Of a stretch of DNA of 64,000 nucleotides, positions 21,268 through 45,876 are shown piece after piece. How positions within the stretch are numbered: position 1 is the stretch's first letter; each line of letters opens with the position of its first letter. Made by a program: the position numbers and the translations under genes. Source of the stretch: Candidatus Micrarchaeota archaeon (lineage in GTDB: Archaea > Micrarchaeota > Micrarchaeia > Burarchaeales > Fermentimicrarchaeaceae); NCBI GenBank assembly GCA_013425335.1, contig JACCLG010000050.1:17532-81531 (forward strand), read 5' to 3'. Below the pieces are notes generated by a model. It did not search any database. It saw only the letters and a program-made list of their open reading frames with translations, and was not told the origin of the DNA.

Positions 21268-21337
21268 TAACGACGTGGCTTCGAGGTGATTACTAAACAA
21301 AAACAAGCTTAAATATCAGAAAAGGAATAATTTAGAC

Positions 21338-22207
21338 ATGGCTGAAAACGTCAAAATTATAGGAAAGCAGAACTCGGAAGAAAAAGCACCAGAAAAAGAG
21401 CACTTCCAGCATATCAAGGAGCTTATCCACCACCTGCATAGAAAGAAATTTGTCGAACCCAGCTCAGTGGAGGAGGTACTGAGATGGATAGATAATGACT
21501 GGAAAAGCGGGGCGCTGAAGAAATTTGCTGATGAACATGAAAAGGATAAGGAAAAATTCATAAAGAAGTTTAAGGCGAATGAAAAGCTTACTGCGGAGAT
21601 GAAAAGTATAATGGAGAAAGTGGGCAAGGGCGTTCTGAGCGAAGATGAGATAAAAGAGGTTAAGGAGAGATTCGGAGGGGCAAAATACTCATGGAGCCGT
21701 TACTCCGTGGCTCCCGTTATAGCCGCCCAGCAAAGAGCAAGCCATATCGAAATAATTAGAACCGTCCCCTTACTGGATGGAGCCATGCGTTACGGTGAAG
21801 AAATCCATGAGTCTGCCCACTATATACAGCTCTTTATAACGGAAAAGCAGCTTGAGCGCGGAGACATCAAGGACCCAATACTAAAAAAACTTCATGGTTA
21901 CCTGCATGAAAAATACGATACTGAGACAATTGAGACCGTAGAGCGTATCTATCTTGGCAGGAGATATGAGGAAACAATAGCCAACGCCCTTAGTTATAGT
22001 ATGTTACACTCAAGAGACACATCCAACGCTTCTCGTGATCTCAATGTAATAATTGAGTTCAGGCTAATCGGGCGGGATATCCGGGATTTGGGACATCTTG
22101 CCAAGGATAACCCCAAGAAATTCAGAGAGCTCCTAGAAAACCCGTCATGGTGGGTGGAAGCTGGCAGCGTTGAAAGCCTTGTGGAGAAGCTAAAACGGAG
22201 TGAGTAA
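21338..22207 (+). CDS. Hypothetical protein (289 aa)
   Basis: Clean ORF with leaderless start after the conserved 'aaaggaataatttagac' promoter motif. Confidence 0.55.
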   Translation: MAENVKIIGKQNSEEKAPEKEHFQHIKELIHHLHRKKFVEPSSVEEVLRWIDNDWKSGALKKFADEHEKDKEKFIKKFKANEKLTAEMKSIMEKVGKGVLSEDEIKEVKERFGGAKYSWSRYSVAPVIAAQQRASHIEIIRTVPLLDGAMRYGEEIHESAHYIQLFITEKQLERGDIKDPILKKLHGYLHEKYDTETIETVERIYLGRRYEETIANALSYSMLHSRDTSNASRDLNVIIEFRLIGRDIRDLGHLAKDNPKKFRELLENPSWWVEAGSVESLVEKLKRSE

Positions 22208-25033: not shown

Positions 25034-25075
25034 GTCCCCACCTGAATTGTCTGAATGCTTCGGCTTGATAACTAT

Positions 25076-25837
25076 TTAAGCCTCGTATCTGACCGTGAAA
25101 GTTCCGGTTGTCGTTTTTGTTAAGTTTGTATCCATTTCGGTGTATCTCACATATATCCGTCCAGTATACGGCGCTCCAATAATCTTTGTATCTGACGGCA
25201 GATTCCCGTTTGCATCAGTGCATGTCACATTGTTAATTCCATCTGTAGCGCTAGTTGGATCCGCTATGAACGCAAAGCTTCCTGAAGGTATTGTCACATT
25301 TGTTGTAGCTGAACCTCCAATTGCATCATAGGAGATGTAGGAGCTACTTGCATAGGACTGGGAAACGTTCTGTGTGCATGAAACACCTGTCACAACTATT
25401 GTCTTCCCAGTTCCTTGCCTTATGTTTAGACTGAGCTTACCTGTATTTGCCCAGAGCTTGACTTCGTAGCACGAGATACCCGCAGGGAATTCGCACTGTA
25501 ACGGTATTGGCGGGCAGAGCATTCCTGTGGTGAACAGCATAGTGAATGTTATAACTAAGAGAAGCACTGCATCAAGCAAATGGGGAGACTTGAGCCCTAT
25601 TATAATGAGAAAGATTATGACTGCTAAGACAAATAAAGGAAAATGCCACGGAGTGCATATAGAAACCCACGTGCAGTAGATAACTACGAAAAAAATTAAT
25701 GTGAATACTATCTGTAGAATCCAAAGTAAATTTTTATTATCCTTCTTTTGAGCAACAACTTCGCTCTTCCTAGCCATTTTACCACCGGTAGGATATTCTT
25801 TTCGGTATTTAAAAATAGCAGTCATCCTGCCAGTCAT
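25076..25837 (-). CDS. Membrane protein with extracellular Ser/Thr-rich domain (start uncertain, possibly ATG 25777)
   Basis: Three TM helices followed by a Thr/Ser/Gly-rich beta-rich domain. Confidence 0.45.
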   Translation of the reverse strand: MTGRMTAIFKYRKEYPTGGKMARKSEVVAQKKDNKNLLWILQIVFTLIFFVVIYCTWVSICTPWHFPLFVLAVIIFLIIIGLKSPHLLDAVLLLVITFTMLFTTGMLCPPIPLQCEFPAGISCYEVKLWANTGKLSLNIRQGTGKTIVVTGVSCTQNVSQSYASSSYISYDAIGGSATTNVTIPSGSFAFIADPTSATDGINNVTCTDANGNLPSDTKIIGAPYTGRIYVRYTEMDTNLTKTTTGTFTVRYEA

Positions 25838-27160: not shown

Positions 27161-27331
27161 TCTACCACCCTACCAAACATTGTTGTTTTTATATATATTA
27201 ATTGCTTTGTATAAAAAACGATTGGGGGTGGTACGTATGAATAAGGGGGTTCGAATCCAAGGGGAGAGTAGAGGGAACCGAGAGGTTCTTCTTTTGGGCT
27301 TATGCTTAAATATCAAAGATGAGCAATTTAA

Positions 27332-29645: not shown

Positions 29646-30563
29646 CTATGAATTGCCAAATCCTTTCCACAGCACACCACATGTTGGAAAGCTAGTAAAA
29701 TTGATTGCAGTAGACTGTTCTGCCGGACTAAGTGGAAATTCCCACTTTGAGATTACCCTTAAATGTCTAATTTCATGTGGTTCTAAATCAATGCTCATAT
29801 ATTGCTTTCCATTAAGCATTATTACTACAGCTAAACCTGTATCCTTATCACAGTAACTATATCCACTCTGCGGTTCTATAACGTAACTCCTTATCTCCTC
29901 ATCTTCAAAATTTTTTATCGTATAGTCCGAAACTGCATAAATCGCATTATCTTGTAACCTAAAAAAACCTATTTTTACAGCAGGAATATTAGTTTCGCAT
30001 ACATTTATAGAAGTGGACTGGTAATTCCTTCCAATAAGAGTAGCATCACAACTCATCTTGTTTAAGTCGACCTCCTGCCCGATATACACGTCCAAACTTG
30101 TGCTTTTAACTTTGAAAGCGTTAGTGTCAATATCAAGATATATTGTATTAGTCATATTATTTCCACCGTTTGAATAATACCAGCTTTCTTGTGTAAACAC
30201 TTTCACATAAGGGTTCTCTTCTACTCTTAGGAGACTGAGATAAGCATTCCCAGGAAGCTCTACGGAAAAATTATCCGACCTCTCAAAAAAAGGTAGATTG
30301 GGAAATAATGCCGTATCGATATCGTAAGTAAGTTTCGAAATTTTGAAATATTCTATATCGTACCCCCCATTCCCATTTGCCACCGGTCCTCCGTATAAAT
30401 ACATGGGTTGGCTTTTGACATCAGAAATTCTAGGTGAAAAAATCGGTTGGATTGCTTGATTGGATATAAAATAAGCCAAGACGGTTATAACTAAACCCAC
30501 AATGGCCTTAATAATTAAACTTTGCGTATCCATTTTCTTTGCCACAAGTTCACCATTATACAT
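29646..30563 (-). CDS. Membrane-anchored/secreted hypothetical protein (305 aa)
   Basis: N-terminal TM then a beta-rich Asn/Tyr-rich domain; AT-rich codon usage. Confidence 0.5.
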   Translation of the reverse strand: MYNGELVAKKMDTQSLIIKAIVGLVITVLAYFISNQAIQPIFSPRISDVKSQPMYLYGGPVANGNGGYDIEYFKISKLTYDIDTALFPNLPFFERSDNFSVELPGNAYLSLLRVEENPYVKVFTQESWYYSNGGNNMTNTIYLDIDTNAFKVKSTSLDVYIGQEVDLNKMSCDATLIGRNYQSTSINVCETNIPAVKIGFFRLQDNAIYAVSDYTIKNFEDEEIRSYVIEPQSGYSYCDKDTGLAVVIMLNGKQYMSIDLEPHEIRHLRVISKWEFPLSPAEQSTAINFTSFPTCGVLWKGFGNS

Positions 30564-30661
30564 TTTATCTCTGTAAGATTATAAATCTACTCCATCACTG
30601 GAAAGGTACCCCTTCGTGAAGTTTATAAACCATTAATACGAAGGATAATATAGGTGGATTT

Positions 30662-31507
30662 GTGGCAGAAGAGAAAGCAAAAATTACGGGCCTACTAAAT
30701 AAACTCTACGTAAAAGACTGCATAGAATTCATGCGTGAGTTACCGGAAAAATGTATAGACGTTATTGTAACTTCACCTCCTTATAACATCGGCAAAGATT
30801 ATTCAGTTTATAATGATGACAAGACTAGACAGGGATACCTTGACTGGATGGAAAAGGTAGCGGTTGGAAGTAAAAGAGTTCTAAAGGAGAATGGTTCTTT
30901 CTTCTTAAATGTTGGTGGCAAACCATCTGATCTTGTAATACCGTATGATGTTGAAAACCGTTTTAGGAGGCATTTTATTTTGCAGAATGATATAATCTGG
31001 GTTAAATCTATAGCAATAACTAAAGAAGACGTAGGGAAGAGTAATGGACTGGACCATGATGTTTTGGTAGGGCACTATAAACCGATCCAAAGCAGCCGTT
31101 TTCTGAATAATTGCCACGAGAACATCTTTCACTTTACAAAAGAGGGTAAAACAAGCCTCCATAAACTTTCTATCGGTGTCCCATATCAATACAAATCAAA
31201 TATAGCACGCTGGGGCAAAAAACAGGATATACGAGACAGAGGCGATGTTTGGTTTATCCCTTATGAGACGATACAGGAGCGTCGTCCGCATCCTGCTGTT
31301 TTTCCAAAGAAACTCCCTCTATTATGTGTAAAATTACATGGAGTTAAGAAGGATATGATTGTTTATGACCCATTTGTTGGAATAGGAACTACTGCTTTAG
31401 CTTGTTTAGACTTAAAAGTAAACTACTTAGGTACTGATGTAGACCATAATTACATCAAAATTGCAAATGAAAGAATTGAGGAAATAAAGGCACAATTAAA
31501 GCTTTGA
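30662..31507 (+). CDS. DNA methyltransferase, beta-class amino-MTase (N4-cytosine or N6-adenine)
   Basis: Motif IV TSPPY near the N-terminus and motif I DPFVGIGTT near the C-terminus, which is the circularly permuted beta-class order. Confidence 0.8.
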   Translation: MAEEKAKITGLLNKLYVKDCIEFMRELPEKCIDVIVTSPPYNIGKDYSVYNDDKTRQGYLDWMEKVAVGSKRVLKENGSFFLNVGGKPSDLVIPYDVENRFRRHFILQNDIIWVKSIAITKEDVGKSNGLDHDVLVGHYKPIQSSRFLNNCHENIFHFTKEGKTSLHKLSIGVPYQYKSNIARWGKKQDIRDRGDVWFIPYETIQERRPHPAVFPKKLPLLCVKLHGVKKDMIVYDPFVGIGTTALACLDLKVNYLGTDVDHNYIKIANERIEEIKAQLKL

Positions 31508-32002
31508 TTGTGATCCAGCCATACTGCTTAAAAGTTGGAGTGCTTTTTCACGAGAAATTTTTGTAGTAGTGCCCAATTCTCCAGCTTTCCACCACGAACG
31601 TACTTGTTCTGAAGTTATTATCCAAAAAGGAACATCCGGGAATTTTTCTATGTCCGACACTATATATCCCTTAATCTCTTTGAGTTTTACTAAAAATCCT
31701 TCTTCCTCAAAAGAACGCTTCGAACCAACCATATAACTGGGGGAAAAATATATTCCACCCTTGCTAATACTTCTGACTTCCCACTTTCCACCTTCTCTAT
31801 CTAAGAGGTCAAAACCTGCTCCTTCACTTGAGGCAAGCTTCCCATGCAAAACCTCATAAGCAAGCCGTCTTTCCAATAGAAATGAAACACGGCGCCCATC
31901 TGTAAAATAAAGGCGAACATCATCCTTGCCTATTTTTAATGCCTTAGCAATTTCTTCAATATTCCATTTGAGATAACCTTCGATTTTGCCCATGACAATC
32001 AC
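31496..32002 (-). CDS. Putative restriction endonuclease (PD-(D/E)xK-like) partnered with the methyltransferase
   Basis: 168 aa; candidate catalytic pattern FDLLD...EVRS; tail-to-tail 12-nt overlap with the MTase gene, typical of type II R-M pairs. Confidence 0.35.
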   Translation of the reverse strand: MIVMGKIEGYLKWNIEEIAKALKIGKDDVRLYFTDGRRVSFLLERRLAYEVLHGKLASSEGAGFDLLDREGGKWEVRSISKGGIYFSPSYMVGSKRSFEEEGFLVKLKEIKGYIVSDIEKFPDVPFWIITSEQVRSWWKAGELGTTTKISREKALQLLSSMAGSQSKL

Positions 32003-32010
32003 CGAGAGAC

Positions 32011-33975
32011 TCAGCTTTTATCTTTAAAATCATCGATTAAGCCATTTATATTACTAAACAGAGAGTCATTTATAACACTAAGCAGTTTTGTGAAAGACCG
32101 TTTTAAGTTATTTGGATAATTGGTAAAGTCATATCCAATTTGTTTAGCTAATTCTGAGCTTTCTTTCTTTTTTTGTTTATCATTTGATATATGCGTCAGA
32201 TGTCTACGGATACCCCTAAGCAATTTAACAGAATTTTCAATCTCATTTTGCTGCTTTTCACTTGCGTTTAGATACTTCGAAAATTCTTTTAAAGCTTCAA
32301 CATCCCCGCTGCAACTTTTGCCTAACTTATCTTCTATTTCTTTTTTATTTAAGTTTTCAATAATTAATTGATTTAGTAAATCAACACCCTGATCAAATTC
32401 TAAAGGCGTTTGTACCTCTTTCGGGAAATAAACAATTTTAACCACTTTATCAGTCGGTATATCATGAAATAATCCAAAATTAAGTTTATTGTTACTAATA
32501 CCATTTGTCTCATTAATGCGTCCGATTATTGAAATCAGCGTCAATTCAGTAAGCGTACTACTTACCAGATCCTTACTATTCCCTACTAGTCTTTTTGAAA
32601 GCTCATCAGTTGCCTTGTTAATTTCTCTGAATGTTAGGCATTGACCATACTTTTTCTCACTAAATTCTTCATCTCTAATACTTTCGAGTTTAGTTTCAAA
32701 ATCCTCTTTCGATGGTTTTCTTTTGCGAATTAAAGCAAGAATAACTGGCAGTATACTAAGAAATACATTTATGCCCTGTCTTTTTGTAATTACATAGTTA
32801 TCCCTATCGTTCCACTGCTTTTCAAAACAACTCTTTATAGCGCTTAGATAGTTGATTAGTATTACCACTATCTCTTTTTCATCACGAGACTTCAATTCCC
32901 TCTCCATAAGTTTTGGAAGAACATAAAATTGACTATTACCAATCCACTTCTTAGTCTGCCATTCATGTATCCTAATTTTTTTATATAGAGGTGAATTCGG
33001 CATTTCATTTAATCTATGGACTACCACAGCAGTTCTTCCTTTAGTATCATCTATTTTCTGCAATCTAAATAATAACCAATTACGCAAAGTTGCGGGGACT
33101 CTTTTTTGATTATCATTAATCTCTGTGAAAAGAGATATTTTCCTAGTAGATTCTAACTCTTCGAAGCCAGTAATAATAATCTTAAATTTATCAGGGGTTT
33201 TTTGCTTCTTGCATTCTTTAAAACCGTATAATCTATGCTGACCGTCTATTACTTCAACCGATTGCTCTACTAATGGAATTTCGAGATAGCCTTGTTCAAA
33301 TACTCCTTTCTTAGTTGTTGTAAAATTAACTCGTTTAGTGAAGTTGACTATAATGTTATTCGCAAGAATAGCTTTTGGTTTGTCAAGAAAAGAACCTATC
33401 TCTTTTAGTCTTTTTGGTTTTAAATATCGTTGATAACCTAGCGGCGTATTCTCTTCATCTCGGTCAACTTTGGCGATTTTGAGTAAATCTGTCGCTCTCA
33501 TAGCAAATATGTACATTTTTTCTTTTCCTTGCTTGACTCGAATCGATGGTACTGATATTAACTGAGGAGGGATTTCAAAAAATTTCTCTATCAAAATTGA
33601 TGCATAATCTTTCTTGTAAAGTTTCGAATTTTGCCAATAACTCCCCAACATAGGTTCGTCCCATATTATTATTCCTCTACTTTTTGCCCATTCTTTATTT
33701 TTTGAGCTAACCCTCTTAGAATCGAAAACTAAAAGGCCACATATCTTGTTTATTTTCTTTCTATCTAATTCGTGGACTATGCCATCTAATTCCCGAACAC
33801 AAGTTTTAACATTACGCCCCTTAGCCATCGTACATTCAATTATTAGTTTAAACTCTCTGAAACTTGCAACCACATCAATTTCTTTATCAGCTAACTCAAT
33901 TTTGGTTTTTACTTTAAATCCTGCATTTCTAAAAAGTTTGGCTACCTTTTTTTCAGTTCGATTAAGTCTTGGCAT
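32011..33975 (-). CDS. Fusion protein: N-terminal Mrr-like PD-(D/E)xK domain + DGQHR (DndB-like, ParB/Srx superfamily) domain
   Basis: N-terminal restriction-endonuclease-like fold (IDVVA...IIECT...K); DGQHR motif EVIDGQHRLYGF; 654 aa. Confidence 0.6.
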   Translation of the reverse strand: MPRLNRTEKKVAKLFRNAGFKVKTKIELADKEIDVVASFREFKLIIECTMAKGRNVKTCVRELDGIVHELDRKKINKICGLLVFDSKRVSSKNKEWAKSRGIIIWDEPMLGSYWQNSKLYKKDYASILIEKFFEIPPQLISVPSIRVKQGKEKMYIFAMRATDLLKIAKVDRDEENTPLGYQRYLKPKRLKEIGSFLDKPKAILANNIIVNFTKRVNFTTTKKGVFEQGYLEIPLVEQSVEVIDGQHRLYGFKECKKQKTPDKFKIIITGFEELESTRKISLFTEINDNQKRVPATLRNWLLFRLQKIDDTKGRTAVVVHRLNEMPNSPLYKKIRIHEWQTKKWIGNSQFYVLPKLMERELKSRDEKEIVVILINYLSAIKSCFEKQWNDRDNYVITKRQGINVFLSILPVILALIRKRKPSKEDFETKLESIRDEEFSEKKYGQCLTFREINKATDELSKRLVGNSKDLVSSTLTELTLISIIGRINETNGISNNKLNFGLFHDIPTDKVVKIVYFPKEVQTPLEFDQGVDLLNQLIIENLNKKEIEDKLGKSCSGDVEALKEFSKYLNASEKQQNEIENSVKLLRGIRRHLTHISNDKQKKKESSELAKQIGYDFTNYPNNLKRSFTKLLSVINDSLFSNINGLIDDFKDKS

Positions 33976-34063
33976 ACACTCCCTCGGATTACAGCAATAC
34001 GATTATTATTTGTGTTGTATATTAAGCTTTTTATTACGATACTTGCTTCATAACATATAACGT

Positions 34064-34324
34064 TCACACGCTCACGTACGGAGCATATTCATCCATGTGA
34101 CTGAATTTCACCCTATCCTGCTGTTCTTTCTCCAGTTCCATTTTTATGTGTGACTCCACGAAGCTCTTCACGTAAGGATGTTCGTATAACACTATAACTT
34201 CATTAAATCCGTCCTCAAAATCTTTCTTTATATTAGTCAGGGCGTTCTTGTATTCAAAAGTAACTTCAACTGCAATTCTTTTCTTATGGGGGCTTTTTTC
34301 AGTAGGAAATACCGCAACATCCAC
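34064..34324 (-). CDS. Hypothetical protein (86 aa)
   Basis: ORF only. Confidence 0.3.
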   Translation of the reverse strand: MDVAVFPTEKSPHKKRIAVEVTFEYKNALTNIKKDFEDGFNEVIVLYEHPYVKSFVESHIKMELEKEQQDRVKFSHMDEYAPYVSV

Positions 34325-34348
34325 TCTCCCGCCTCTTCCTCTCGAACA

Positions 34349-35050
34349 TTACTCCTCCAGCTCCTTAACCACCTTCACTATCCCCTCAAACCTCTCAATT
34401 GTGAAATCCGCAACATTCTCCTCCTCGGAATACCTCTGGCATCCATACTTTGCCAGGCAGGTTAGGAGCCCTGCTTTCTTTGCTCCAATTATGTCTCTCT
34501 CAGGATTATCTCCAACAAACAAAGCCTCCCTCGGAGACACTCCCAGCAGGTGAACCACCCTGAGGAAAGGCTGTTTCGACGGCTTCAACTCCTTTGTATC
34601 CTCATATGTCACAACAACGTCAAAAAGATGGTCCAGTCCTGAGAGGATGAGCCTCTGCCACGCCTTCTCCCTGGGCGCATCTGAGACTATCCCAAGCTTG
34701 TAGCTCTGCTTAAGCTTCTTCAGAGTGCCCACAACTTTCGGCCTCGGTCTCAGCAAAGCGTATTTCTTCTTCTCATATGCGATTATTGCAGCCTGCTTCG
34801 CATGCTCGTGCAGATGCGGGCCCAGAACATAGCCTGAGAGAAGCTCCTCAAACGTTCTCTGGTACTCTATTCCTCTTGTTTCGTATATTGCGAATATCTT
34901 CCCGTAAAGCTCCCTCTCCCCTGCCTTCACCCCTGCTTCCCGGATGGCTTTGGCTGCAGCAAGCGCGCTCTCCCTCTTGAAGCCTGAGAAGTCAAGCAAT
35001 GTGTTGTCCAGGTCAAAAACAATTGCCTTAATCATATAAAATCCACTCAT
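34349..35050 (-). CDS. HAD-superfamily hydrolase (subfamily IA)
   Basis: Motif I IVFDLDNTL, motif III K, motif IV GDNPERDI; GC-rich host-like composition. Confidence 0.75.
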   Translation of the reverse strand: MSGFYMIKAIVFDLDNTLLDFSGFKRESALAAAKAIREAGVKAGERELYGKIFAIYETRGIEYQRTFEELLSGYVLGPHLHEHAKQAAIIAYEKKKYALLRPRPKVVGTLKKLKQSYKLGIVSDAPREKAWQRLILSGLDHLFDVVVTYEDTKELKPSKQPFLRVVHLLGVSPREALFVGDNPERDIIGAKKAGLLTCLAKYGCQRYSEEENVADFTIERFEGIVKVVKELEE

Positions 35051-35064
35051 ACCAAATATTCTTA

Positions 35065-35085
35065 GGTATATTAAGATTGCTTTGG
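35065..35085 (-). promoter_or_regulatory. 21-nt promoter cassette 'c(c)aaagcaatcttaatatac' (TATA 'ttaatata'), copy A, upstream of the HAD hydrolase gene
   Basis: Identical 19-21-mer also at 39498-39518 and 40009-40029, each 15-55 nt upstream of a minus-strand start codon. Confidence 0.55.
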
Positions 35086-35096
35086 CTTTAATGTAT

Positions 35097-36089
35097 TCAG
35101 CTATCCCTATTCATATCTTTCCCAAATTCTTTAGATACTAATTCACGAAACGTTGTCTTAAATGAAACTTGGTGCTTTGGTCCACCCATAGTAATCTCCC
35201 TAAAAAGTTTTCGTGGCTCACCATCGATAACATATACTTTATGCTCCCAATTTAGACTAGAATCCCATCCTTCTTCTTTTACCCATTTTATATACTCGTT
35301 TTTAGCTTTGCAACCTCTCCAGCTTTCTTTAGCAGTTTCGATTTTCGTTTCTTTAACTTTACAGATATGAGTTATTGCACTGGGTAAACCATTTTTTCTA
35401 TGCGTTTCGATTACTGCTATATACAAAGCATCAGCAGCACCAGTATTTTGTACTATTATATTTTTTTCTTTTAATAGTTTGAAAAACATAGGCTTAGTAT
35501 ATACCGCAAGTACTTCAACAACATCTTCAATACGTTGTTCATCCATCTTTTTTATACTATTCATCATATCACCTATCCATACATTAAACATCTTCGTCAT
35601 TTTCTTTGTTGATTTTTCTGATAAGTCTATTAAATACTGCCAAGAATATGTTAAAAATTCTGTTTTTTCTAATTTCAACTCGCTTTGGATACTCTCAGTC
35701 TCTTCAGAAGTCAGATCTCGTTTTGTCACATATACCAAACGTATATTTGGAAAGTAGGCTCTTTGTTTGAGCAGGAAATCTGCATAATTCTTAAGCTGAG
35801 AAACGTATTCAGGTTTGTGTTCAATAATTTTTGATTCTATAATCACCATAAACTCATTTTGCTTGCGTATCATCAGATCAGTTATTCCATAAGGTTCAAT
35901 AGATTCTTGAGTTCTTATTCTAACGTCTCTGATTTTGGAATTGGGTAACTTAAGCTCTTTTAAGAATTCAGTAAAAACCTGTTGATCACTATGCAGAATG
36001 AAACCAAAAGAAATAGATAAACGATTTTCTGTTCGAGGATTTTTCGGCAATCTCGCTTGCACAAAGTCAAATATATTATCAATATTCAC
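35097..36089 (-). CDS. PD-(D/E)xK nuclease-family protein (330 aa)
   Basis: Motif ITDLMI...VIIESKI (D...ExK); AT-rich. Confidence 0.45.
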   Translation of the reverse strand: MNIDNIFDFVQARLPKNPRTENRLSISFGFILHSDQQVFTEFLKELKLPNSKIRDVRIRTQESIEPYGITDLMIRKQNEFMVIIESKIIEHKPEYVSQLKNYADFLLKQRAYFPNIRLVYVTKRDLTSEETESIQSELKLEKTEFLTYSWQYLIDLSEKSTKKMTKMFNVWIGDMMNSIKKMDEQRIEDVVEVLAVYTKPMFFKLLKEKNIIVQNTGAADALYIAVIETHRKNGLPSAITHICKVKETKIETAKESWRGCKAKNEYIKWVKEEGWDSSLNWEHKVYVIDGEPRKLFREITMGGPKHQVSFKTTFRELVSKEFGKDMNRDS

Positions 36090-36146: not shown

Positions 36147-37490
36147 TCAAATCTCGCACTTCCTTCCCTTTTCAGTAACCTCCGTATTCCTGCAAGCAAC
36201 ACCAAACATCCCAGGATTCATCGTATGTACTGGGAAAACCTTCTTGGCATCTATCTCCTTCACAATCTCAAAAATCTCGCTTTTGCTTGCGTGCCCGCTT
36301 GCGTGGAGCTGGTGCCTCCTCATCCCAAAATGCTCCAGCCAGTTCTCCAGCACATCATCAGAAACCTGCGACATCGGGTCCTCCTCGAAAGGCTCGCTCA
36401 TTGAATGGATGCACTCCCCCCCGGAAGGCCTCACATCCACCAGCTCAGTCAACTGCCAGAAGTCCAGCTCGAATATCAGCTCCTTCTGGTTGTCATGAAT
36501 ATACCCAGAATCAACGCAGTCGTCCATCATCGGCTTCTCCCATTTCTTGTATGTTTTCATCTTCCTGCAGTAAACCTCAATATGCTTATCCTTGAAAGGG
36601 TCAGAAAGCCCCAGAGGGTCGTCCTTCAAAGACTGAAGAAGATGGGCGGTTTTCATGGATGTCACCAGCTTCCTCCCGCTTTCCTTCGCAATATCATGGA
36701 AAGTCCTGAACCTGTCCAAGTCTTTCGGGTATCTCATTGCAAGCACAAGCCTGTCAGATTCATGGATAACTTTCTTGCTTTCCTCCTTCACAGACTCCTC
36801 GGAGTAATTCTTCCTTTTTTCCACGTCAAATACCCTGGTTCCTTCTATTATGAGTGCCTCAGGCTCAGCTTCCTTTGCCCTCTGGACGAACTCACGGGTC
36901 ATGTCGCCTCTTGGGCCGTGCTGCCTCAAGTCTCCGGTATAAGCAACCACCCCTTCAGATGTTTCAACAAGGAAGCCGTATGCGCCTGGAACGGAATGGT
37001 CGACATGGATTGGAGTTACCTTCAAATCCCCCACGGAAATCTCCTGCCCGCTCCTGAATTGCCTTATCTCGGCCCCTTCTGCGAAGTATCTGTTGCTCGT
37101 GGTCTCAGCATTGGAGTCAAGTATCTTCTTGGCAGTTTCTCCCATGTAGATAGGTATCCCTGGATGCAGATATTCCAGATGAGCCACATGGTCAAAATGG
37201 GCGTGGGAGATGAAAACCCCGTCAAACCCCGGTTCAGAGGCCTTCAGGTCAGTATGCTCAATTGCCTCATCTGAGTAAAGCCCGTTCAACTTCGGAATAA
37301 GCCCAAATTCGAAGTAATCCCTGAGCCCGAACCTGTCCCTTGGGGAGAGATAAGACTCTGGGACGAAATAATCATCCAGCAGGGAGAAGGACTGCCCGAA
37401 GTCCAGGAATATCCTTGTCTTCCTGTCCTCAAGCAGTATCTTGTTTCCGCCTATCTCCTTTACTCCGCCGAAGAATGTAAGAGATGTCAT
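36147..37490 (-). CDS. rnj: RNase J-like metallo-beta-lactamase / beta-CASP ribonuclease
   Basis: N-terminus FFGGVKEIGGNKILLE; MBL motif HAHFDH; beta-CASP region; about 447 aa as in archaeal RNase J. Confidence 0.75.
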   Translation of the reverse strand: MTSLTFFGGVKEIGGNKILLEDRKTRIFLDFGQSFSLLDDYFVPESYLSPRDRFGLRDYFEFGLIPKLNGLYSDEAIEHTDLKASEPGFDGVFISHAHFDHVAHLEYLHPGIPIYMGETAKKILDSNAETTSNRYFAEGAEIRQFRSGQEISVGDLKVTPIHVDHSVPGAYGFLVETSEGVVAYTGDLRQHGPRGDMTREFVQRAKEAEPEALIIEGTRVFDVEKRKNYSEESVKEESKKVIHESDRLVLAMRYPKDLDRFRTFHDIAKESGRKLVTSMKTAHLLQSLKDDPLGLSDPFKDKHIEVYCRKMKTYKKWEKPMMDDCVDSGYIHDNQKELIFELDFWQLTELVDVRPSGGECIHSMSEPFEEDPMSQVSDDVLENWLEHFGMRRHQLHASGHASKSEIFEIVKEIDAKKVFPVHTMNPGMFGVACRNTEVTEKGRKCEI

Positions 37491-38116
37491 TTATATCCCT
37501 CCAGCAGAAGCCTGCCCCAGAACGTCTGGGAGTACTTCTTTTCATCCTGGTTGAATGATACAAACCCAATGCTCTCAAGGTTGTTCAAATGGCGGAAAAT
37601 GCGGGGGTAATCCTTCCTATCCCCCTTCAAATCATCCACAATCTCTTTCAGCTTCCTGTCCTCTTTCACTGCTTCCAGAACCTTCTTCTGCGAGCTGCTC
37701 AGGACAAATGGAGCCGATATAGGGGGCAGCAGATCAGTTTTGAACCTATCAGCCTTCCTTATTGTTACAATGAGGTGCATTTTCCTCTTGACAAAGAAGG
37801 TTGCGTAGAGCAAAGCCAGCGCGATGTGCCTCTCCCCTCCCCCTATGTGGATGTAAAGCTCGTCATCTTTGCCTGTTGAATTGAGGATGCGGATGCACTC
37901 TCTGACTGCCTTCTCAAACGGTTCGTCTGTTATGAACTCCTCTCTGGTGCTTATCAATGTCTTTATCCTTTCGATTGTATCCCTGACCTTCTCCCTCTCC
38001 GAGCGGTCTTTTGAGTGAATCACAATGGCCCTGTCTGCCCCCGTTTTAACCGCATTCCTTAATGACTCTTCAAAAACCTTGGGGGTAAACCCCACCGACA
38101 TGACGTGAATCCGCAT
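37487..38116 (-). CDS. Csa3-like CARF + winged-HTH regulator
   Basis: N-terminal CARF-like Rossmann start MRIHVMSVGFTPKVF and HIGGGERHIALALL segment; C-terminal wHTH; 4-nt ATGA overlap with the RNase J-like gene. Confidence 0.5.
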   Translation of the reverse strand: MRIHVMSVGFTPKVFEESLRNAVKTGADRAIVIHSKDRSEREKVRDTIERIKTLISTREEFITDEPFEKAVRECIRILNSTGKDDELYIHIGGGERHIALALLYATFFVKRKMHLIVTIRKADRFKTDLLPPISAPFVLSSSQKKVLEAVKEDRKLKEIVDDLKGDRKDYPRIFRHLNNLESIGFVSFNQDEKKYSQTFWGRLLLEGYK

Positions 38117-39598: not shown

Positions 39599-39958
39599 CT
39601 ATCCCTTCTTCTTGGGGACTGGCAGAGGTTTTGCATAGGAAGCCAGTAGCTTTATCGCCCGCTCTAAGGCATACTTCACTTCTCTCTCATTCTTGCAGCC
39701 TGTACATATTACTTTACCGTTCTTGAAGAGCAGAAGAGATGCCTTTGGATCTTTGAGCTTGAGTATTGCACCTGGGAACTGCTCGGGCTCATACTCTATG
39801 TTCCTGACTTTCTTACCAAGAACATAAAGGTCAAGTTCCACTCCCAAATTGGCTGAAGCTACTATGTTCTCTATCTTGAATGATGGATCAATTGTAAGTT
39901 TCTTTGTCAATGAAACACCTTCTCTGCCCCCTTCCAGCCCATTTCTACTCAAAACCAC
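39599..39958 (-). CDS. Single-repeat TATA-binding-protein-like protein (half-size TBP paralog)
   Basis: 119 aa; one TBP repeat with hallmark KIENIVASANLGVELDL...YEPEQFPGAILKL...LLLFKNGKVICTG; in-frame stop 4 nt upstream of GTG start and next gene begins at 40016, so no second repeat is encoded. Confidence 0.6.
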   Translation of the reverse strand: MVLSRNGLEGGREGVSLTKKLTIDPSFKIENIVASANLGVELDLYVLGKKVRNIEYEPEQFPGAILKLKDPKASLLLFKNGKVICTGCKNEREVKYALERAIKLLASYAKPLPVPKKKG

Positions 39959-40008: not shown

Positions 40009-40029
40009 TAGTATATTAAGATTGCTTTG
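40009..40029 (-). promoter_or_regulatory. 21-nt promoter cassette, copy C, upstream of the TBP-like gene
   Basis: 'tagtatattaagattgctttga'. Confidence 0.5.
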
Positions 40030-41956
40030 AATTTTCAGTAGGAAGCTCCGGATATTCCAGCAGCACTACCTTCGGGATATCCTCAAGCTTGGCGATGGCT
40101 TTCTTCTCCTCGGGAGCCAGCTTCACGTATTTCTCAAGCAGCTTCTTCCCCTCCTCTGCATTCCCTTCTGCCTCTATAGCAAGCAACTCCTTGGAAAGGG
40201 AGGCAACTCCCTCCTCGAATTTTTTCCTGTCAATCTTGTATGTCCCGTCAGCATTCCTCACAATGCCTCCATTCTCAACCAAGTAGTTGAACTCCAGGAT
40301 ATTTGCATCCACATGAGCGTCCGCCCCAAGCCCTGCCCTGAGGAAGACGAACTTATCCGAGAGGGCAGATGTATAGACAAGCTCCCTCTCCCTTTCCGTT
40401 ATGGCGCCTTTCTCGACAAGATACGGGACATGATACAGGCCGACTATGTCCGCCTTTGCTTCCTCTATTGCTGCATAAACGCCCCCCAAAGCCCTGCGCG
40501 TGTTCATCTCCGGCCCTGCAAGGGATTCCTTGAGCCCTCCCAGCGGGTGGCTTTCCTCATGGAGCAGGAATGCCAGGAAATTCCCGTAGATGAGGTCCTC
40601 CTTGCTCATGGATGAAATCGTGCTTTTGTCAATTAGTGCATCTATTATTGGAACAGACCTTGGCCGGCTTTTCTCAGCTACTGCATTGTAGAGCATTGTC
40701 GTCCTTGCCCCGTGTTCTTTTATCACCTCATCGTCATTCGGAAGGCTGAAGGCCACAGTGCTTATCGAGCCGTGTGCTTCTCCAGCATTGTATAAAGTAT
40801 CCGCAACCACTGTAGGAGCCATTTTCCTGTTTGGTTTCTTTGCCTCGTCAGTTACCGGCAAACGCTTCTCAAGCTCAGGCATCAGCGCATTTATGCCTTG
40901 CACCTTGCTTGTCTTCTCCTCATCTGTGTAATAGATTATTATCTCGGCATCCCTCCTTACCGCTACTCCCCCGTCAAGATATGTCTCAACATCCCCAACA
41001 ACTATGTTCAGCTTGGAGCGGACTTTCAGCCACGCAATGTCGCTCTCTCTGCAATTTTCCGTCATGACATCCTTGCTCCTCTTAAAGAGGTATTCCTTGA
41101 GTGTAGAGTCGTCGGTGAGCTGGCCTGCTTTGAACAGTGCATCCTTTATTATTCCTGTCTCTTCCTTGAAGTATTCCGCATAAGGTATGAATTCAACAGG
41201 TTTCCCCCCCTTGAAAACCACTATATTTGTGGGTGAGTTGAGCCCTTTCCTGACTCTTTCCCTCTCGCCTTCAGGAAATTCCATAATTAGTTTCTCCCTG
41301 AACTGCTTTCCCTCGTCACCTTTCTTGAAGAACTCGCGAGGAATGTCGGATAACCCTCCGCTGCCGATGTAAAGCCCGCCTTCAACAGGCCTCTGGTCAA
41401 AAATAGGAGTGAAAAGCTTCAAATCCATGCCAGACATGAACTTTCTCCAGAGTCTCTCTTTTGACTTGAGAGGCACCTTATTCTCAATCACTTCGAGTAT
41501 CTCTTTTCCCTTGAATTCCGGCACGAGTCTCTTGTCGCCGTTGGCTGCGTCAAAAATCGAGTGGTTCACCCTGGCGAGTTTTACATAAGAGGAGATTCTC
41601 TTAGCAAGCTCATCATCCGCGTACTTCTTTATCTCCTCAAGGAATGTTACAATTTCTGTTGTTCCCGGTGCTTTCTGCTTTGTGAATACGCTCTCAACAG
41701 GCCCGATTGCCTTCCACAGCTCGCGGACTGTTGCCATTTCAGACTTGCTGAGCCTGCTCCAGTCAAATGCGAGCTTCACGACTGCATACTCCTTCGGTAG
41801 CGCTATCTCTTCCTTCTCTCCCATCGGCTTGACGCGCGAAAACTCGTTTTCCCTCGGCACTTCTGCCTTGCCATACGCCATATGAACACCCATAAAATTG
41901 CTCATTTCAGATTTATAAACCCTTAAGAAGCTATGAAGAATTGTAACCATGGTCAC
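40016..41956 (-). CDS. Zn-dependent metallopeptidase, M49 (dipeptidyl-peptidase III)-like
   Basis: HEESHPLGG (HExxH) followed about 30 aa later by EEAKAD, resembling the M49 second motif EExxAE; 646 aa; N-terminal start uncertain. Confidence 0.5.
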   Translation of the reverse strand: MTMVTILHSFLRVYKSEMSNFMGVHMAYGKAEVPRENEFSRVKPMGEKEEIALPKEYAVVKLAFDWSRLSKSEMATVRELWKAIGPVESVFTKQKAPGTTEIVTFLEEIKKYADDELAKRISSYVKLARVNHSIFDAANGDKRLVPEFKGKEILEVIENKVPLKSKERLWRKFMSGMDLKLFTPIFDQRPVEGGLYIGSGGLSDIPREFFKKGDEGKQFREKLIMEFPEGERERVRKGLNSPTNIVVFKGGKPVEFIPYAEYFKEETGIIKDALFKAGQLTDDSTLKEYLFKRSKDVMTENCRESDIAWLKVRSKLNIVVGDVETYLDGGVAVRRDAEIIIYYTDEEKTSKVQGINALMPELEKRLPVTDEAKKPNRKMAPTVVADTLYNAGEAHGSISTVAFSLPNDDEVIKEHGARTTMLYNAVAEKSRPRSVPIIDALIDKSTISSMSKEDLIYGNFLAFLLHEESHPLGGLKESLAGPEMNTRRALGGVYAAIEEAKADIVGLYHVPYLVEKGAITERERELVYTSALSDKFVFLRAGLGADAHVDANILEFNYLVENGGIVRNADGTYKIDRKKFEEGVASLSKELLAIEAEGNAEEGKKLLEKYVKLAPEEKKAIAKLEDIPKVVLLEYPELPTENSKQS

Positions 41957-41973
41957 ATACTATATCAACGCCT

Positions 41974-43374
41974 TCAACCCATCCTCTCAGGAAGCTTCGG
42001 TGCCTTCCCTGTCAGCTCGTCCATATCGGTTATGCCTGTTTTCAGCTTATCTGTATCTATCCTGAACATTCTTCTTTCCTTGGTGTTTATCGCGACCAAC
42101 TTTCCATCTATACCTATGCCCGGCATCCAATCCTTTTTGGCGCACTTCTCTTCAAATTTCCTCAACTTTTCTTCTCCATTTTTGATTCTTTCAGATATGC
42201 CCTTAACATTATCATCAGCCAGTTCGTTGCAGAGAGTAATATAATCCCTGAAACCTTCTGCTTTTCTTGCGTAGTTTGCCTCCTCCTTATAGTGCTCAAG
42301 CAGGCTCCTCGGCGGAGAGCTGAACTTTATGACAACTGACCTGCCCTCCCCTGTTTCCTCTTTCTCAACCGAGTTCAGTATTATTGTCTTGCCTGCGCCT
42401 GCAGAGCCTCCTCCATACGAGTGGTTTCTATCTTGTTTTAAAGCAGCTGCATTCTTATAATCCTCAAAAAAAACCTGCGGAGTTGGAGTGATTACGAAAA
42501 ATGATAACTCTAGAGCAGCATATGCCCGGATCACATTGTCATTGCTGCTTAGCGAATTAGCCGCCGCAGACTGGGCTCTTCCCTCTTTATATCTCAAATC
42601 AGCCCTACGGAGTTCTGGATCCAGGATAAATTTTGAGAACTCCAGATTCTCTTTTGTTTTTTCATCCAATGGGTTCTTCCATAACTCCTTATCATACAAA
42701 TGAACTAGGAACACCGTGGCATCAGTATAAAATTTAGTCTTTTGAACTTCGTATTCATGAGCTATCTCTTCCCGACTGGCACCAGTAAGTTCGGAATAAA
42801 ACTCAACAATCTTCGATGGATCTTTGAATAGAGGTAAAAGTATCCTGTCTACTTCTTTTATCTTCTTGCCGAATGGCTCTTCAATATGGCTAATTTCATG
42901 CGGTATTTGAGAGACGGCATGAAGAATATCTAACCCTTCTTCAAACAGGATAGTAGAACCTGCTGTTCCTAAATAACCAGTTTTTGCGATGGATATATCC
43001 AATCTCTTTTTAAAATTTTCCTCTGTGTAATTGGATAAAAACTTCAATGTATGTCCATCATCTACAACTTTTTCAGAAAGATTGTTTTTCTCTGCAAAAA
43101 CTCGGTTTAATCCCTCTCCTACCTCAACTACCCTTTTTAGTATATCCCTGTCTCCTCTTATAAATGAATCCAGGAGAGCTTGTGGATTCCTAGTTTTCTG
43201 GAGAACATCCTGAGCATCGATTAATCCCGGGAGTGTTTTATTTAAAATGTCGCAAGATTGATAAAAAAACTCTCTAACTCCTTCGCTTAATACTAGCTCG
43301 CTTCTTTTTGTGGCTGTTGCTGCCATGCCTAGAATTATGCCTTTCTTGTTATTTAAGCTTGCTTTGTCTAACAA
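41974..43374 (-). CDS. Hypothetical protein with HExxH motif (ImmA/IrrE-like?) and C-terminal P-loop NTPase motif
   Basis: PHEISHIEE; Walker A GGGSAGAGKT; 466 aa. Confidence 0.45.
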   Translation of the reverse strand: MLDKASLNNKKGIILGMAATATKRSELVLSEGVREFFYQSCDILNKTLPGLIDAQDVLQKTRNPQALLDSFIRGDRDILKRVVEVGEGLNRVFAEKNNLSEKVVDDGHTLKFLSNYTEENFKKRLDISIAKTGYLGTAGSTILFEEGLDILHAVSQIPHEISHIEEPFGKKIKEVDRILLPLFKDPSKIVEFYSELTGASREEIAHEYEVQKTKFYTDATVFLVHLYDKELWKNPLDEKTKENLEFSKFILDPELRRADLRYKEGRAQSAAANSLSSNDNVIRAYAALELSFFVITPTPQVFFEDYKNAAALKQDRNHSYGGGSAGAGKTIILNSVEKEETGEGRSVVIKFSSPPRSLLEHYKEEANYARKAEGFRDYITLCNELADDNVKGISERIKNGEEKLRKFEEKCAKKDWMPGIGIDGKLVAINTKERRMFRIDTDKLKTGITDMDELTGKAPKLPERMG

Positions 43375-43380
43375 AATGAA

Positions 43381-43869
43381 TTACACTAGACCTGGTTGCT
43401 TATTGAATTTTTCAATCTGGTCAATGCCTTCAGGAGTCAGTTTATAAATCCACTGAATTTTTTCCTTCCCCACAAACTGCATTGCCAAGTAACCTGCCTT
43501 GATTAACTGTGCTAACTGGCTCTTCAGCTCATCCTCAACAAGCGATGGGCGAATTATAGTTCCTGTTTCCTCCACTATCTCTTCAACGCGTATAATCCTG
43601 CTCTCAAAAGTGGTTACCTTGCTCGCAGGTTGTACAAGAGGCTGTTTTGATATCTCCTCTCTTACATCCTGGAGTAGATTCATTTCTATAATGTTCAGTG
43701 CCGGACTTTTACCAGACTTTTGTATATTATAGATAGTGTCAAGTATCTTCCTTGCCTCAGGAGTGAGAGACGTAGGGGGTTTCTCTACAACATCAATATT
43801 ACGAAGCACATCCCTCATCGCAGAGTTCTTTTCAGTGAAAACCACAAAATCACCAATTAATTTCTGCAT
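43381..43869 (-). CDS. Winged-helix transcriptional regulator (162 aa)
   Basis: C-terminal wHTH (LAQLIKAGYLAMQFVGKEKIQWIYKLTPEG); first gene of the minus-strand operon. Confidence 0.5.
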   Translation of the reverse strand: MQKLIGDFVVFTEKNSAMRDVLRNIDVVEKPPTSLTPEARKILDTIYNIQKSGKSPALNIIEMNLLQDVREEISKQPLVQPASKVTTFESRIIRVEEIVEETGTIIRPSLVEDELKSQLAQLIKAGYLAMQFVGKEKIQWIYKLTPEGIDQIEKFNKQPGLV

Positions 43870-44730
43870 TTTTGAGTATAATAACCTTGCCCCGGATTAG
43901 GAATCGGATTTTTTGACGTCGCAGTCCATACCATTATATACGGCGGACCGCCATATAACTACGTAACTTCTTTTCTCTTTATTGAAATCTAGTTGCGGTT
44001 GGTGGAAACAATGGGACTATTCTACTCTCCTCGTCAGATGAGGATATTATTGGATATGGATAAAAATTCGAAGCGAGACGAGGTTGCTGAGGAAGAGCAG
44101 GACCAGTCAGAGTAGAGTTAAGCTTATTAAATATAAGGAATGGAAGAATCTACATTTTTGTCTTAACTTGCTTTGGCTTGAGAATCAGACTACGCATATT
44201 GCCTGTAATGCACTTTGCCCCCGTGCCTCTCCTGAGCCTTTCTCCTTCTCGTCTGTGTCCTGCACGTTGTCCTTCTCCTCTTTATCCTTGATTTCAACAA
44301 TACATCACCCTGCCCAATCTATTCTTCATCATAAATTCTGATCTGCTTCTTTTTGCCGTACCTTTCCATATACGCATGGTACTCCCTGTATATGCATTCT
44401 CTTCTTATCGAAGTCACTTAAATCACCATTGATATTTTTTTATTCCTATTCTTGTTTAATGGCAATATGCTAAACGAAATGACATTACTGCCATGCTCCA
44501 TCTTGCCTATCACTTTCACATAGAAATAGGAGAACTAACAATAATATGGAATCAGGAGTATATAAATCAATGTGTGCCGAACTTGCTTTGGTATACGCCC
44601 CTCAACTGCTTCTGCGAGCAGCGTCCGAGGGCAAGACATATTCTTCGATGGTGAATTGAACAATTTAAGCACTCTTGAGCGCTTACGAAAGTTCAGCAAA
44701 GATTAAATAACGTAGAAGTCAAAAAATAAG

Positions 44731-45876
44731 ATGACTGAGGCGAATAAGATGCTTAGCGCGGAAGAGATACTCGAATTAAAAAGAGAACATCACAGCTTAG
44801 AAAAAAGAATGGAAGAAATCGAAAAGAACCAACGTTCTACTATTGTGAAACTTTCGGAAAGGCTAAAAGAATTAATGGCGGACATAGGGTCAGTACGAGA
44901 GAAAGAAAAAAGCATGTGGAATCCAGACCTTAGCACACGGATAAAACTTTCCAAGAAAGGCATCAAACTCTCCAAGGAATTAAATTATTTTGTGATGGAT
45001 GCGGCGAGCGAGTTTGAAAAGGGCAACATCCCGGAAGATGCGGGAAAGAGGTTTATATCGCTTGCAAAGCTCATCAAAGGTAACAGGATGGATCTTGCAA
45101 AAAAGGAATTTGAGTATTTTGAAGAAATCATCGAATTAGGCAAAACATACGAAAAAAGCGAGGAGGAAATGAAAGAACAAGACAGAATACTCAAAAGAGA
45201 GCAGGCCAGGGTAGAAGCAATATTGGCAGAAATGTCTGAGCTGGAAAAAGGAACAGTTGATTTGGGAAAGGTCCTCAGCTACGAGAACCTATTGAAAAAT
45301 CTGGGAAAACTGGAAAAACTTAGAGAAACATATATCCATTCCCTCATTTCAGAACCAGTAGCAGAATTGCTTGAAGATATTGAAAAATATTCTCTGAAAG
45401 ATTATTGCCAAGCTCTTCCCGGAAAAGGGGAAATGGCGGAGTTAAAAGAGTTCTTTTCGGAATATCCTGCATTTGGAAAATGCAATGTCAATCAGCTTTG
45501 CGAGTTCTTCGAATACAGCGAAAAAAAGCTTTCACATATCTGTCCTGAAACTTCTAGATTCAGGAGATTAGTGGTGGGAAACAAAAATTTATTTGAAACA
45601 ATTCTTTCACTTGGGAAGACGACCTTCCTGGCAATGGATGATGCGAATGAAAAAGTTATGGACTTTTATGCCGAAAGGATCGAAGGTGCGCAAGAGATTG
45701 TTGAACAAATAGGACAGTTGAGAAAAGAAAAATATTCTTATAAAGAAGAATATGAAAAAAATAAAAAGATTGAAAAAACAAAGGAAGAGCTTTCAAAATA
45801 TTCAAAAAATGGATTGGAGGCAGAGTTGAGAGACATCGAACATCTTCTCGAACTTTTGCATTCCAATCGCCCCTGA
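44731..45876 (+). CDS. Coiled-coil hypothetical protein (381 aa)
   Basis: Lys/Glu-rich heptad-like sequence; AT-rich. Confidence 0.45.
   Translation: MTEANKMLSAEEILELKREHHSLEKRMEEIEKNQRSTIVKLSERLKELMADIGSVREKEKSMWNPDLSTRIKLSKKGIKLSKELNYFVMDAASEFEKGNIPEDAGKRFISLAKLIKGNRMDLAKKEFEYFEEIIELGKTYEKSEEEMKEQDRILKREQARVEAILAEMSELEKGTVDLGKVLSYENLLKNLGKLEKLRETYIHSLISEPVAELLEDIEKYSLKDYCQALPGKGEMAELKEFFSEYPAFGKCNVNQLCEFFEYSEKKLSHICPETSRFRRLVVGNKNLFETILSLGKTTFLAMDDANEKVMDFYAERIEGAQEIVEQIGQLRKEKYSYKEEYEKNKKIEKTKEELSKYSKNGLEAELRDIEHLLELLHSNRP

Follow-up and report, generated by a model that had tools for sequence, protein, structure and literature searches.

An orphan family of HExxH proteins beside a dipeptidyl-peptidase III gene in Candidatus Micrarchaeota

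Several kinds of described system come close to the locus treated here. ImmA/IrrE-type (M78) proteases paired with helix-turn-helix (HTH) regulators, such as CapH/CapP of the cyclic oligonucleotide-based antiphage signalling system (CBASS), combine an HExxH gene with a neighbouring, co-directional gene of the HTH type. Gluzincins and minigluzincins are zinc metallopeptidases in which an HExxH is joined by a Glu ligand farther downstream, and which have the zincin N-terminal subdomain. Finally, the pentapeptide-motif dipeptidyl-peptidases III (DPP III, family M49) of Corallococcus (CoDPP III, structure 5ZUM) and Caldithrix abyssi (CaDPP III, structure 6EOM) have been characterised (PMC5805324, PMC9820243). 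The locus lies in a chromosomal stretch of 64,000 nucleotides (contig JACCLG010000050.1, positions 17,532 to 81,531; hereafter the window) from a metagenome-assembled genome of Candidatus Micrarchaeota (DPANN), and consists of three minus-strand genes: gene 1, coding for a winged-helix protein, gene 2, for an orphan HExxH protein, and gene 3, for a DPP III. In what follows, L-numbers denote compared contigs or loci and P-numbers homologous proteins.

A preliminary description of this DNA had joined the three genes into an HTH/protease switch of the ImmA/IrrE type. The locus shares with such systems the HExxH gene next to a same-strand HTH-type gene, but it differs in having no M78 profile or fold match, in a pairing that is not conserved, in the lack of defence genes and PADLOC matches at the locus, and in a gene 1 that behaves as a core gene of its clade. 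The explanation favoured here, to which we give an even chance, is that of three independently evolving neighbours, where gene 2 would be a new putative gluzincin-like metallopeptidase which may take part, in loose cooperation with DPP III and with members of further orphan HExxH families, in the turnover of peptides in the cytoplasm.

A candidate metallopeptidase next to a dipeptidyl-peptidase III

The three maximal open reading frames (ORFs) of the locus, all on the minus strand (43381-43869, 41974-43374 and 40016-41956 in the ORF listing), were recovered as first described, together with the motifs quoted from them (PHEISHIEE and GGGSAGAGKT in the middle one, HEESH...EEAKAD in the third). 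Nevertheless, the upstream ATG, TTG or GTG codons with which they begin have no homologue support, and the starts found in the NCBI calls and in all homologue alignments are GTG 43845, ATG 43326 (MAATATK...) and ATG 41881 (MAYGKAE...), the last of these backed by P0033 and P0034. The database entries identical in sequence are H0N99_05065, H0N99_05060 and H0N99_05055, from a contig of 91 kb, and their NCBI lengths of 154, 450 and 621 aa replace the 162, 466 and 646 aa given earlier. Since the supported starts lie internal to the maximal ORFs, the intergenic gaps widen from the 6 and 17 nt first reported to 54 nt between genes 1 and 2 and 92 nt between genes 2 and 3. Rfam and tRNA scans gave no feature near the locus.

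Gene 2 belongs to a rare family. A search of 5.8 billion clusters yielded three homologues and one of 1.8 billion representatives yielded 19, these relatives being metagenomic singletons or near-singletons, unnamed or labelled 'hypothetical protein'. The contigs on which the family has so far been met belong to Micrarchaeota-like DPANN archaea or are of unknown origin. In the alignment of 17 members, whose mean identity is 25%, the H, E and H of HExxH account for three of the only five invariant columns. The motif pointed out in the preliminary description is thus a real one, kept in 17/17 members, and on this alignment its conservation is far beyond chance. Moreover, the motif (R)Y-x-E-G-R-A farther downstream contains a Glu that is kept as E in 16/17 members and replaced by D in the remaining one. 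It follows the HExxH at a distance of 24-38 aa in the short forms of the family (about 275-350 aa) and of 100-105 aa in the long forms, whose two ligand helices are set apart by a helical insert of 85 aa. The EGxA part of the motif presumably resembles the NEGFA-type motif of the Glu helix in M1 enzymes.

The AlphaFold2 (AF2) model of the full-length protein reached a mean predicted local distance difference test (pLDDT) of 84.5 and a predicted template-modelling score (pTM) of 0.84, and that of the core a pLDDT of 89.9. The predicted elements run from a helix (91-105) through three strands (110-114, 120-122 and 125-129) to the HExxH helix (134-148) and a later helix (237-260) bearing Glu248, an order which we take to be that expected of a zincin/gluzincin catalytic subdomain. 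On these grounds the product of gene 2 is probably a zinc metallopeptidase, of the gluzincin type and of a family not described before. Zinc would be bound by Glu248 together with two residues of the active-site helix after the three-stranded sheet, His143 and His147, Glu144 would serve as the general base, and the 85-aa helical insert with the N- and C-terminal domains may shape or limit the access of substrates. Neither a hydrophobic segment nor a signal peptide was detected in gene 2 (maximum KD19 1.14), and the protein is taken to be a cytoplasmic member of a small, fast-diverging family.

The resemblance to gluzincins stops at this arrangement, the nearly invariant Glu at gluzincin-like distance included. 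No solved zincin was detectably similar to gene 2, either in sequence or in the Foldseek comparisons, and the long forms depart further through their helical insert and through N- and C-terminal flanking domains of no known type. Gene 2 gave no match above threshold to the Pfam, NCBIfam, PADLOC or PHROG models, and nothing meaningful came out of sequence and profile searches of the PDB. Foldseek found no match at E<=0.001 for the full and core models against the PDB or for the core against BFVD; among the sub-significant BFVD matches of the core, entries labelled IrrE, SprT or 'metalloprotease' are over-represented. The scans of genome collections contained no gene-2 relative, and those of viral, phage, plasmid and IMG/VR collections were empty.

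The identity of gene 3 is more easily settled. In phmmer searches of the PDB, it matched 5ZUM (E=8.9e-56) and 6EOM (E=1.5e-50), both over about 380 residues, and also 5NA6 (E=4.7e-8). Its HEESH aligns with HELMH of 5ZUM and HEISH of 6EOM, and its EEAKAD with EEAKAD and EECKAD, respectively; a Glu of the equivalent motif binds zinc in CaDPP III (PMC5805324). In six Micrarchaeota orthologues of gene 3, residues H441, E442, H445, E473, E474, K476, A477 and D478 are invariant. The two zinc motifs stand at the same 27-residue spacing as in CaDPP III and CoDPP III, from which gene 3 differs by its archaeal origin, its length of 621 aa and an N-terminal portion of about 240 residues outside the phmmer alignment. 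PF03571 did not match the window protein at E<=1 (DUF7897 and CiaB did so weakly only), although more distant relatives, at 31-33% identity, carry this domain; the miss is attributed to divergence and does not contradict the homology to the PDB structures. By sequence, gene 3 is clearly an M49 DPP III, in line with the likeness initially proposed, and belongs to the HExxH subgroup, with a predicted enzyme activity which would consist in the removal of N-terminal dipeptides from short peptides. Scans of genome collections for DPP III returned only L014, already known, and the metagenome scan revealed no new close DPP III locus.

Winged-helix gene, promoter-like boxes and the proposed switch

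In its full form, the switch first proposed would consist of an ImmA/IrrE-like protease, fused to a P-loop nucleoside triphosphatase (NTPase), which cleaves a winged-HTH repressor and, with the M49 peptidase, forms a damage-sensing or defence device. The close, co-directional genes speak for it, as do the winged helix of gene 1, an HExxH with a downstream Glu in gene 2 as in M78 proteases, and the IrrE-like entries among the non-significant fold matches. A relationship to ImmA/IrrE is not supported, however: Peptidase_M78 matched none of the 17 family members at E<=1, and in the comparison of the gene-2 core IrrE 3DTI came up only at the level of noise (E=1.7, TM 0.17).

The fusion to an NTPase fared no better. 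The Walker A pattern of gene 2 occurs in 1/17 members and falls within a lineage-specific insertion that is missing in 14/16 relatives, the other two (P0002 and P0023) having partial, motif-free insertions at the same site. Residues 302-339 were modelled by AF2 with pLDDT <50, between helices conserved in the family. Weak local matches of the insertion to Zeta_toxin (E=0.03; 14 bits against a cut-off of 22.3) and AAA_30 (E=0.17, also below threshold) cover some 40-50 residues only. Gene 2 thus shares with zeta-toxin and AAA P-loop NTPases a GxxxxGKT string and these local matches, but the string sits in a non-conserved, disordered stretch, and gene 2 contains neither a Walker B motif nor a folded alpha/beta NTPase core. 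Alignment and model alike are consistent with a chance match in a disordered insertion that leaves no room for such a core.

The third component, gene 1, is a winged-helix protein, in agreement with the preliminary description. Its 10 homologues, at 64-88% identity, all begin at the same position, and HTH_34 matched 10/10 members of the family (best E=3.9e-8; window protein alone, E=0.0036) and PadR 5/10. A synteny block with a 208-aa gene, HxlR, PanE, PanB and, further on, Trm1 is common to the window and to L004 (Candidatus Fermentimicrarchaeum limneticum Sv326), L006 and L008, while unrelated genes come after gene 1 in these last three loci, where searches with hidden Markov models (HMM) found no gene-2 or DPP III relatives within 8 kb of it. 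The gene-1 orthologues of L004-L009 likewise had no gene 2 within the compared loci, and no gene-1 homologue accompanies the gene-2 relatives in L001, L002, L010, L016 and L017. By genomic context, gene 1 is a clade-conserved core winged-helix protein and not a dedicated partner of genes 2 and 3, since three relatives preserve its surroundings but are without genes 2 and 3 within 8 kb. The low GC content (0.41 in gene 2 against 0.49 in DPP III) was not accepted as a sign that genes 1 and 2 had been acquired horizontally, because the core gene 1 is as low in GC as gene 2.

Two observations were made on the other side of gene 1. In L004, L006 and L008, gene 1 and the 208-aa gene are directly adjacent, whereas in the window a DUF7118 coiled-coil gene, inserted relative to these three loci, and an unusually long spacer of 861 bp between it and gene 1 intervene.

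Nor do the gaps demonstrate a tight operon coupling of the three genes, since they are wider than first reported and each holds a TATA-like box: in that before gene 2, AAGCTTAAATA, a box of the B recognition element (BRE)/TATA type, and in that before DPP III, TTTATAAA, read directly from the sequence and of putative promoter function. With up to one mismatch, the 11-mer AAGCTTAAATA is found seven times in the window against 1.76 copies expected. Boxes of this kind stand at 43350-43360, 21305-21315, 44699-44709, 27302-27312 and 25073-25083. At least three copies (43350, 21305 and 44699) precede an ATG by 22-34 nt, namely those of gene 2, of a gene for a 289-aa protein of another orphan HExxH family and of the DUF7118 gene (22-33 nt in the two last cases), and two further boxes lie 20-50 nt 5' of ORF starts. 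The 289-aa gene has an exact AAGCTTAAATA box and an initiator region similar to that of gene 2. This distribution suggests that AAGCTTAAATA represents the BRE/TATA consensus of the lineage, with mostly leaderless transcripts. It is likely, then, that the copy at 43350 acts as gene 2's own promoter and yields a leaderless gene-2 mRNA, and that gene 2 and DPP III are served by separate promoters; a canonical promoter of its own, if functional, fits poorly with gene 2 as one part of a switch. Co-transcription of the three genes is possible, but is not implied by their spacing. A scan for sigma-70 promoters and intrinsic terminators was uninformative for an archaeon.

With regard to defence, PADLOC searches of all three proteins gave no defence-family match, and PHROG none above threshold. 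The nearest defence-like genes form a restriction-modification (RM) island at 29.6-36.1 kb, at least 4 kb away and separated by housekeeping genes. A mobile-element or defence role finds no backing in these searches or in the phage, plasmid and IMG/VR collections. In summary, the preliminary description was largely right about the single components, but of the two outcomes which it named as refuting its proposal one has come about: the trio is not co-conserved, whereas gene 2 was assigned to no housekeeping family. The switch, largely refuted by the absent co-conservation, is regarded as highly improbable.

Genomic contexts, divergence and the weighing of readings

In the window, the order is gene 1, gene 2, DPP III and a gene for a protein with a TATA-binding protein (TBP) domain. 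In L016, a DPP III of 85% amino acid identity comes first and is followed, after a 46-nt gap, by the gene-2 relative P0016 and then by a 40-aa gene and Fic on the opposite strand. The same 40-aa gene and Fic lie downstream in L010-L012, where P0017, a protein of 690 aa, fuses a gene-2 relative with a second orphan HExxH family, here termed the partner family (about 325 aa, with EG[IV]AHY some 55 aa after the HExxH). Partner, gene-2 relative and a tetratricopeptide repeat protein succeed each other in L002/L003; L002 comes from an Sv326-like strain (99.5% DNA identity to the terminal part of L004, in which the partner comes after TBP and a zinc-ribbon gene). In L013, the partner is followed by an AbrB/MazE-like gene and DPP III, in L022 a member (290 aa) of a third orphan HExxH family stands 32 nt ahead of DPP III, and in L001 a ribbon-helix-helix (RHH) gene and ParE precede the gene-2 relative. 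In L014 and L015, DPP III is on its own.

The partner family belongs to no Pfam family, and its sole PADLOC signal is a weak match to QatB (E about 0.008). The third family, of 289-294 aa, has an invariant HE-x-A-H-Y, an E-x-x-A-N-A motif about 50 aa downstream and no Pfam match either. That the orphan HExxH families might be paralogues of each other or of M49 was an idea dropped after hhalign comparisons of the gene-2 core with the partner and with DPP III, of the partner with DPP III, and of the 289-aa family with both, since all had probabilities of 1% or lower. The window has HExxH at two further places, seemingly by accident: one is in an ABC ATPase (1438-2280), the other in a 305-aa protein (29646-30563) whose N-terminal segment is hydrophobic.

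Because the HExxH families and DPP III recur near one another and one fusion exists, a shared role most likely lies in the breakdown of peptides and proteins in the cytoplasm. Under this proposal, the orphan HExxH proteins would make or shorten oligopeptides, which DPP III would then trim. An orphan HExxH gene lies within two genes of DPP III in 4/6 DPP III loci, and a gene-2 relative is directly adjacent to it in 2/6, in opposite gene orders. The fusion P0017 is the strongest sign of functional coupling, although it links gene 2 to the partner and not to DPP III.

Several points weigh against cooperating but independent neighbours. The direct adjacency of gene 2 and DPP III is limited to those two loci of a narrow clade with regional synteny, and L014 and L015 have DPP III alone. 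No sequence or fold match puts gene 2 into any peptidase family, the best Foldseek E-values against the PDB being 0.18 for the full model and 0.75 for the core. The metal site proposed for His143, His147 and Glu248 is a prediction drawn from the order of secondary-structure elements. In addition, the gene-2 relatives diverge far faster (34-39% identity) than their neighbours (85-96%), which is unusual for a housekeeping peptidase.

Some of these points would equally suit an adjacency without meaning, in which gene 2 has an unrelated role, as a regulatory protease with a specific substrate or as a metal-dependent hydrolase other than a peptidase, and has come to lie near DPP III by chance in a rearrangement-prone region. 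Contexts differ in almost every contig, the promoters are likely separate, and gene 2 has no fold match to known peptidases. Moreover, all DPP III/gene-2 loci come from one narrow clade in which the metallo-beta-lactamase (MBL) RNase, a PsbP-like gene and TBP are nearby in several cases, so that this regional synteny can account for the repeated proximity and shared ancestry could explain it at least in part. On the other hand, the frequency of orphan HExxH genes within two genes of DPP III, the retention of adjacency in spite of the reversed gene order between the window and L016, and the fusion, which argues for coupling among the HExxH families, all speak against mere chance, and this explanation is considered rather unlikely.

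The divergence of gene 2 deserves separate treatment. Between the window and L016, DPP III is 85% identical and gene 2 34%; between L016 and L010, Fic is 96% and gene 2 39%; between the window and L010, the MBL RNase is 91% and gene 2 35%; and between the window and the Sv326-like strain, TBP is 94%, gene 1 64% and gene 2 47% identical. The gene-2 promoter and first 10 codons (window 43298-43364, L010 207-272) have 88% DNA identity, the codons encoding a conserved N-terminal peptide, MAATATK[RK]SE, despite which the proteins of the two loci are only 35% identical. A stretch at the C-terminus of the gene-2 protein, PKLPEKMG, is conserved too. Either very fast evolution or the presence of different paralogues at the same loci would produce such a pattern. 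As a side observation, a 260-aa protein downstream of DPP III in L013 begins with a similar MKATATKDE.

Together with the ParE, Fic and AbiEii neighbours, this divergence keeps alive a reading in terms of conflict or host interaction. Gene 2, the partner and the 289-aa family would then be hypervariable accessory proteases, toxin- or effector-like in conflict or in symbiont-host interaction and swapped at conserved loci, with DPP III as a bystander. A 5' end conserved ahead of a diverged body, fusion and fission, long and short forms, the RHH-ParE, Fic and AbiEii genes nearby and the GC content of gene 2, lower than that of DPP III, all fit this. Against it, the core gene 1 is equally low in GC, no defence-family match, signal peptide or membrane segment was found, the family is not present in the viral and plasmid collections searched, and no immunity-like small gene is consistently adjacent, for which reasons we hold it to be unlikely.

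Of the two readings just weighed and that of independent neighbours with loose cooperation, the last remains preferred. A bolder version would let gene 2 found a structurally new zincin-like family which, with the partner, the 289-aa family and DPP III, makes up a Micrarchaeota-specific and rapidly diversifying proteolytic module, its parts swapped at conserved loci and possibly tied to symbiosis or inter-genome conflict; it is put forward as a speculation that is probably wrong in its full extent.

Surrounding features and meaning of the locus

The coordinates of the locus and of the features around it are collected in Table 1. Next to DPP III, the locus is adjoined by a single-repeat, half-size TBP-domain protein (103-119 aa), of which the window and Sv326 versions share 94% identity; in archaea, the canonical TBP contains two repeats. 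Farther away, the low-GC (0.33-0.40) RM or defence-like island is followed by a beta-CASP/RMMBL MBL RNase and a Csa3-like protein with CARF/Rossmann and winged-HTH domains, whose genes overlap by 4 nt and are translationally coupled.

Table 1. Positions of the three genes, their motifs and other features, in the window unless a contig is named.
Feature	Position	Strand	Remark
Gene 1 (H0N99_05065), winged-helix protein	43381..43845	-	154 aa; GTG 43845; earlier 162-aa ORF began at ATG 43869
Gene 2 (H0N99_05060), orphan HExxH family	41974..43326	-	450 aa; predicted gluzincin-like zinc metallopeptidase
Gene 3 (H0N99_05055), M49 DPP III, HExxH subgroup	40016..41881	-	621 aa; activity predicted
HEISH, residues 143-147 of gene 2	42886..42900	-	invariant 17/17; candidate zinc-binding/catalytic motif
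Glu248 codon of gene 2	42583..42585	-	YKEGRA motif; candidate third zinc ligand
Insertion of ~45 aa in gene 2	42307..42441	-	about residues 296-340; lineage-specific
GGGSAGAGKT, residues 305-314 of gene 2	42385-42414	-	inside insertion
HEESH, residues 441-445 of gene 3	40547..40561	-	first DPP III zinc motif
EEAKAD, residues 473-478 of gene 3	40448..40465	-	second M49 motif
AAGCTTAAATA, BRE/TATA-like box	43350..43360	-	in 54-nt gap, 24-34 nt before gene-2 ATG
TTTATAAA, TATA-like box	41912..41919	-	in 92-nt gap, 31-38 nt before DPP III ATG; sequence reading
Partner family, P0017	L010 244-2316		fusion with gene-2 relative
Partner family	L002 25-789
Partner family	L013 6197-7168
Partner family	L004 15861-16466
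Third orphan HExxH family	21338-22207	+	289-aa gene
Third orphan HExxH family	L010 4577-5461
Third orphan HExxH family	L022 3117-3989		290 aa
TBP-domain protein	39599-39958	-	single repeat
TBP-domain protein	L004 15033-15344		single repeat
Spacer between gene 1 and DUF7118 gene	43870-44730		861 bp
DUF7118 coiled-coil gene	44731-45876	+	GC 0.38
RM/defence-like island	29646-36089		low GC
N6/N4 DNA methylase	30662-31507		RM island
Type II restriction enzyme	31496-32002		PADLOC E=9e-52
DpdB/DndB-like protein, Mrr-like N-terminus	32011-33975		RM island
PD-(D/E)XK/Cas4-like nuclease	35097-36089		RM island
Beta-CASP/RMMBL MBL RNase	36147-37490	-
Csa3-like CARF/Rossmann + winged-HTH protein	37487-38116	-	4-nt overlap with RNase gene

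The comparison removes a false lead, as the combination of HTH protein, protease-NTPase and peptidase is not a system. With gene 3, the locus also provides an archaeal example of the pentapeptide subgroup of M49 DPP III, whereas both of the structurally characterised HExxH-subgroup enzymes that it matched are bacterial. Moreover, gene 2 stands for a confidently modelled family that has neither a Pfam or NCBIfam entry nor a significant fold match in the PDB, and why it has diverged so extremely at loci that are otherwise conserved deserves an explanation. Should gene 2 prove to be a genuine peptidase with a link to DPP III, it would enlarge the scant knowledge of peptide processing in reduced symbionts.

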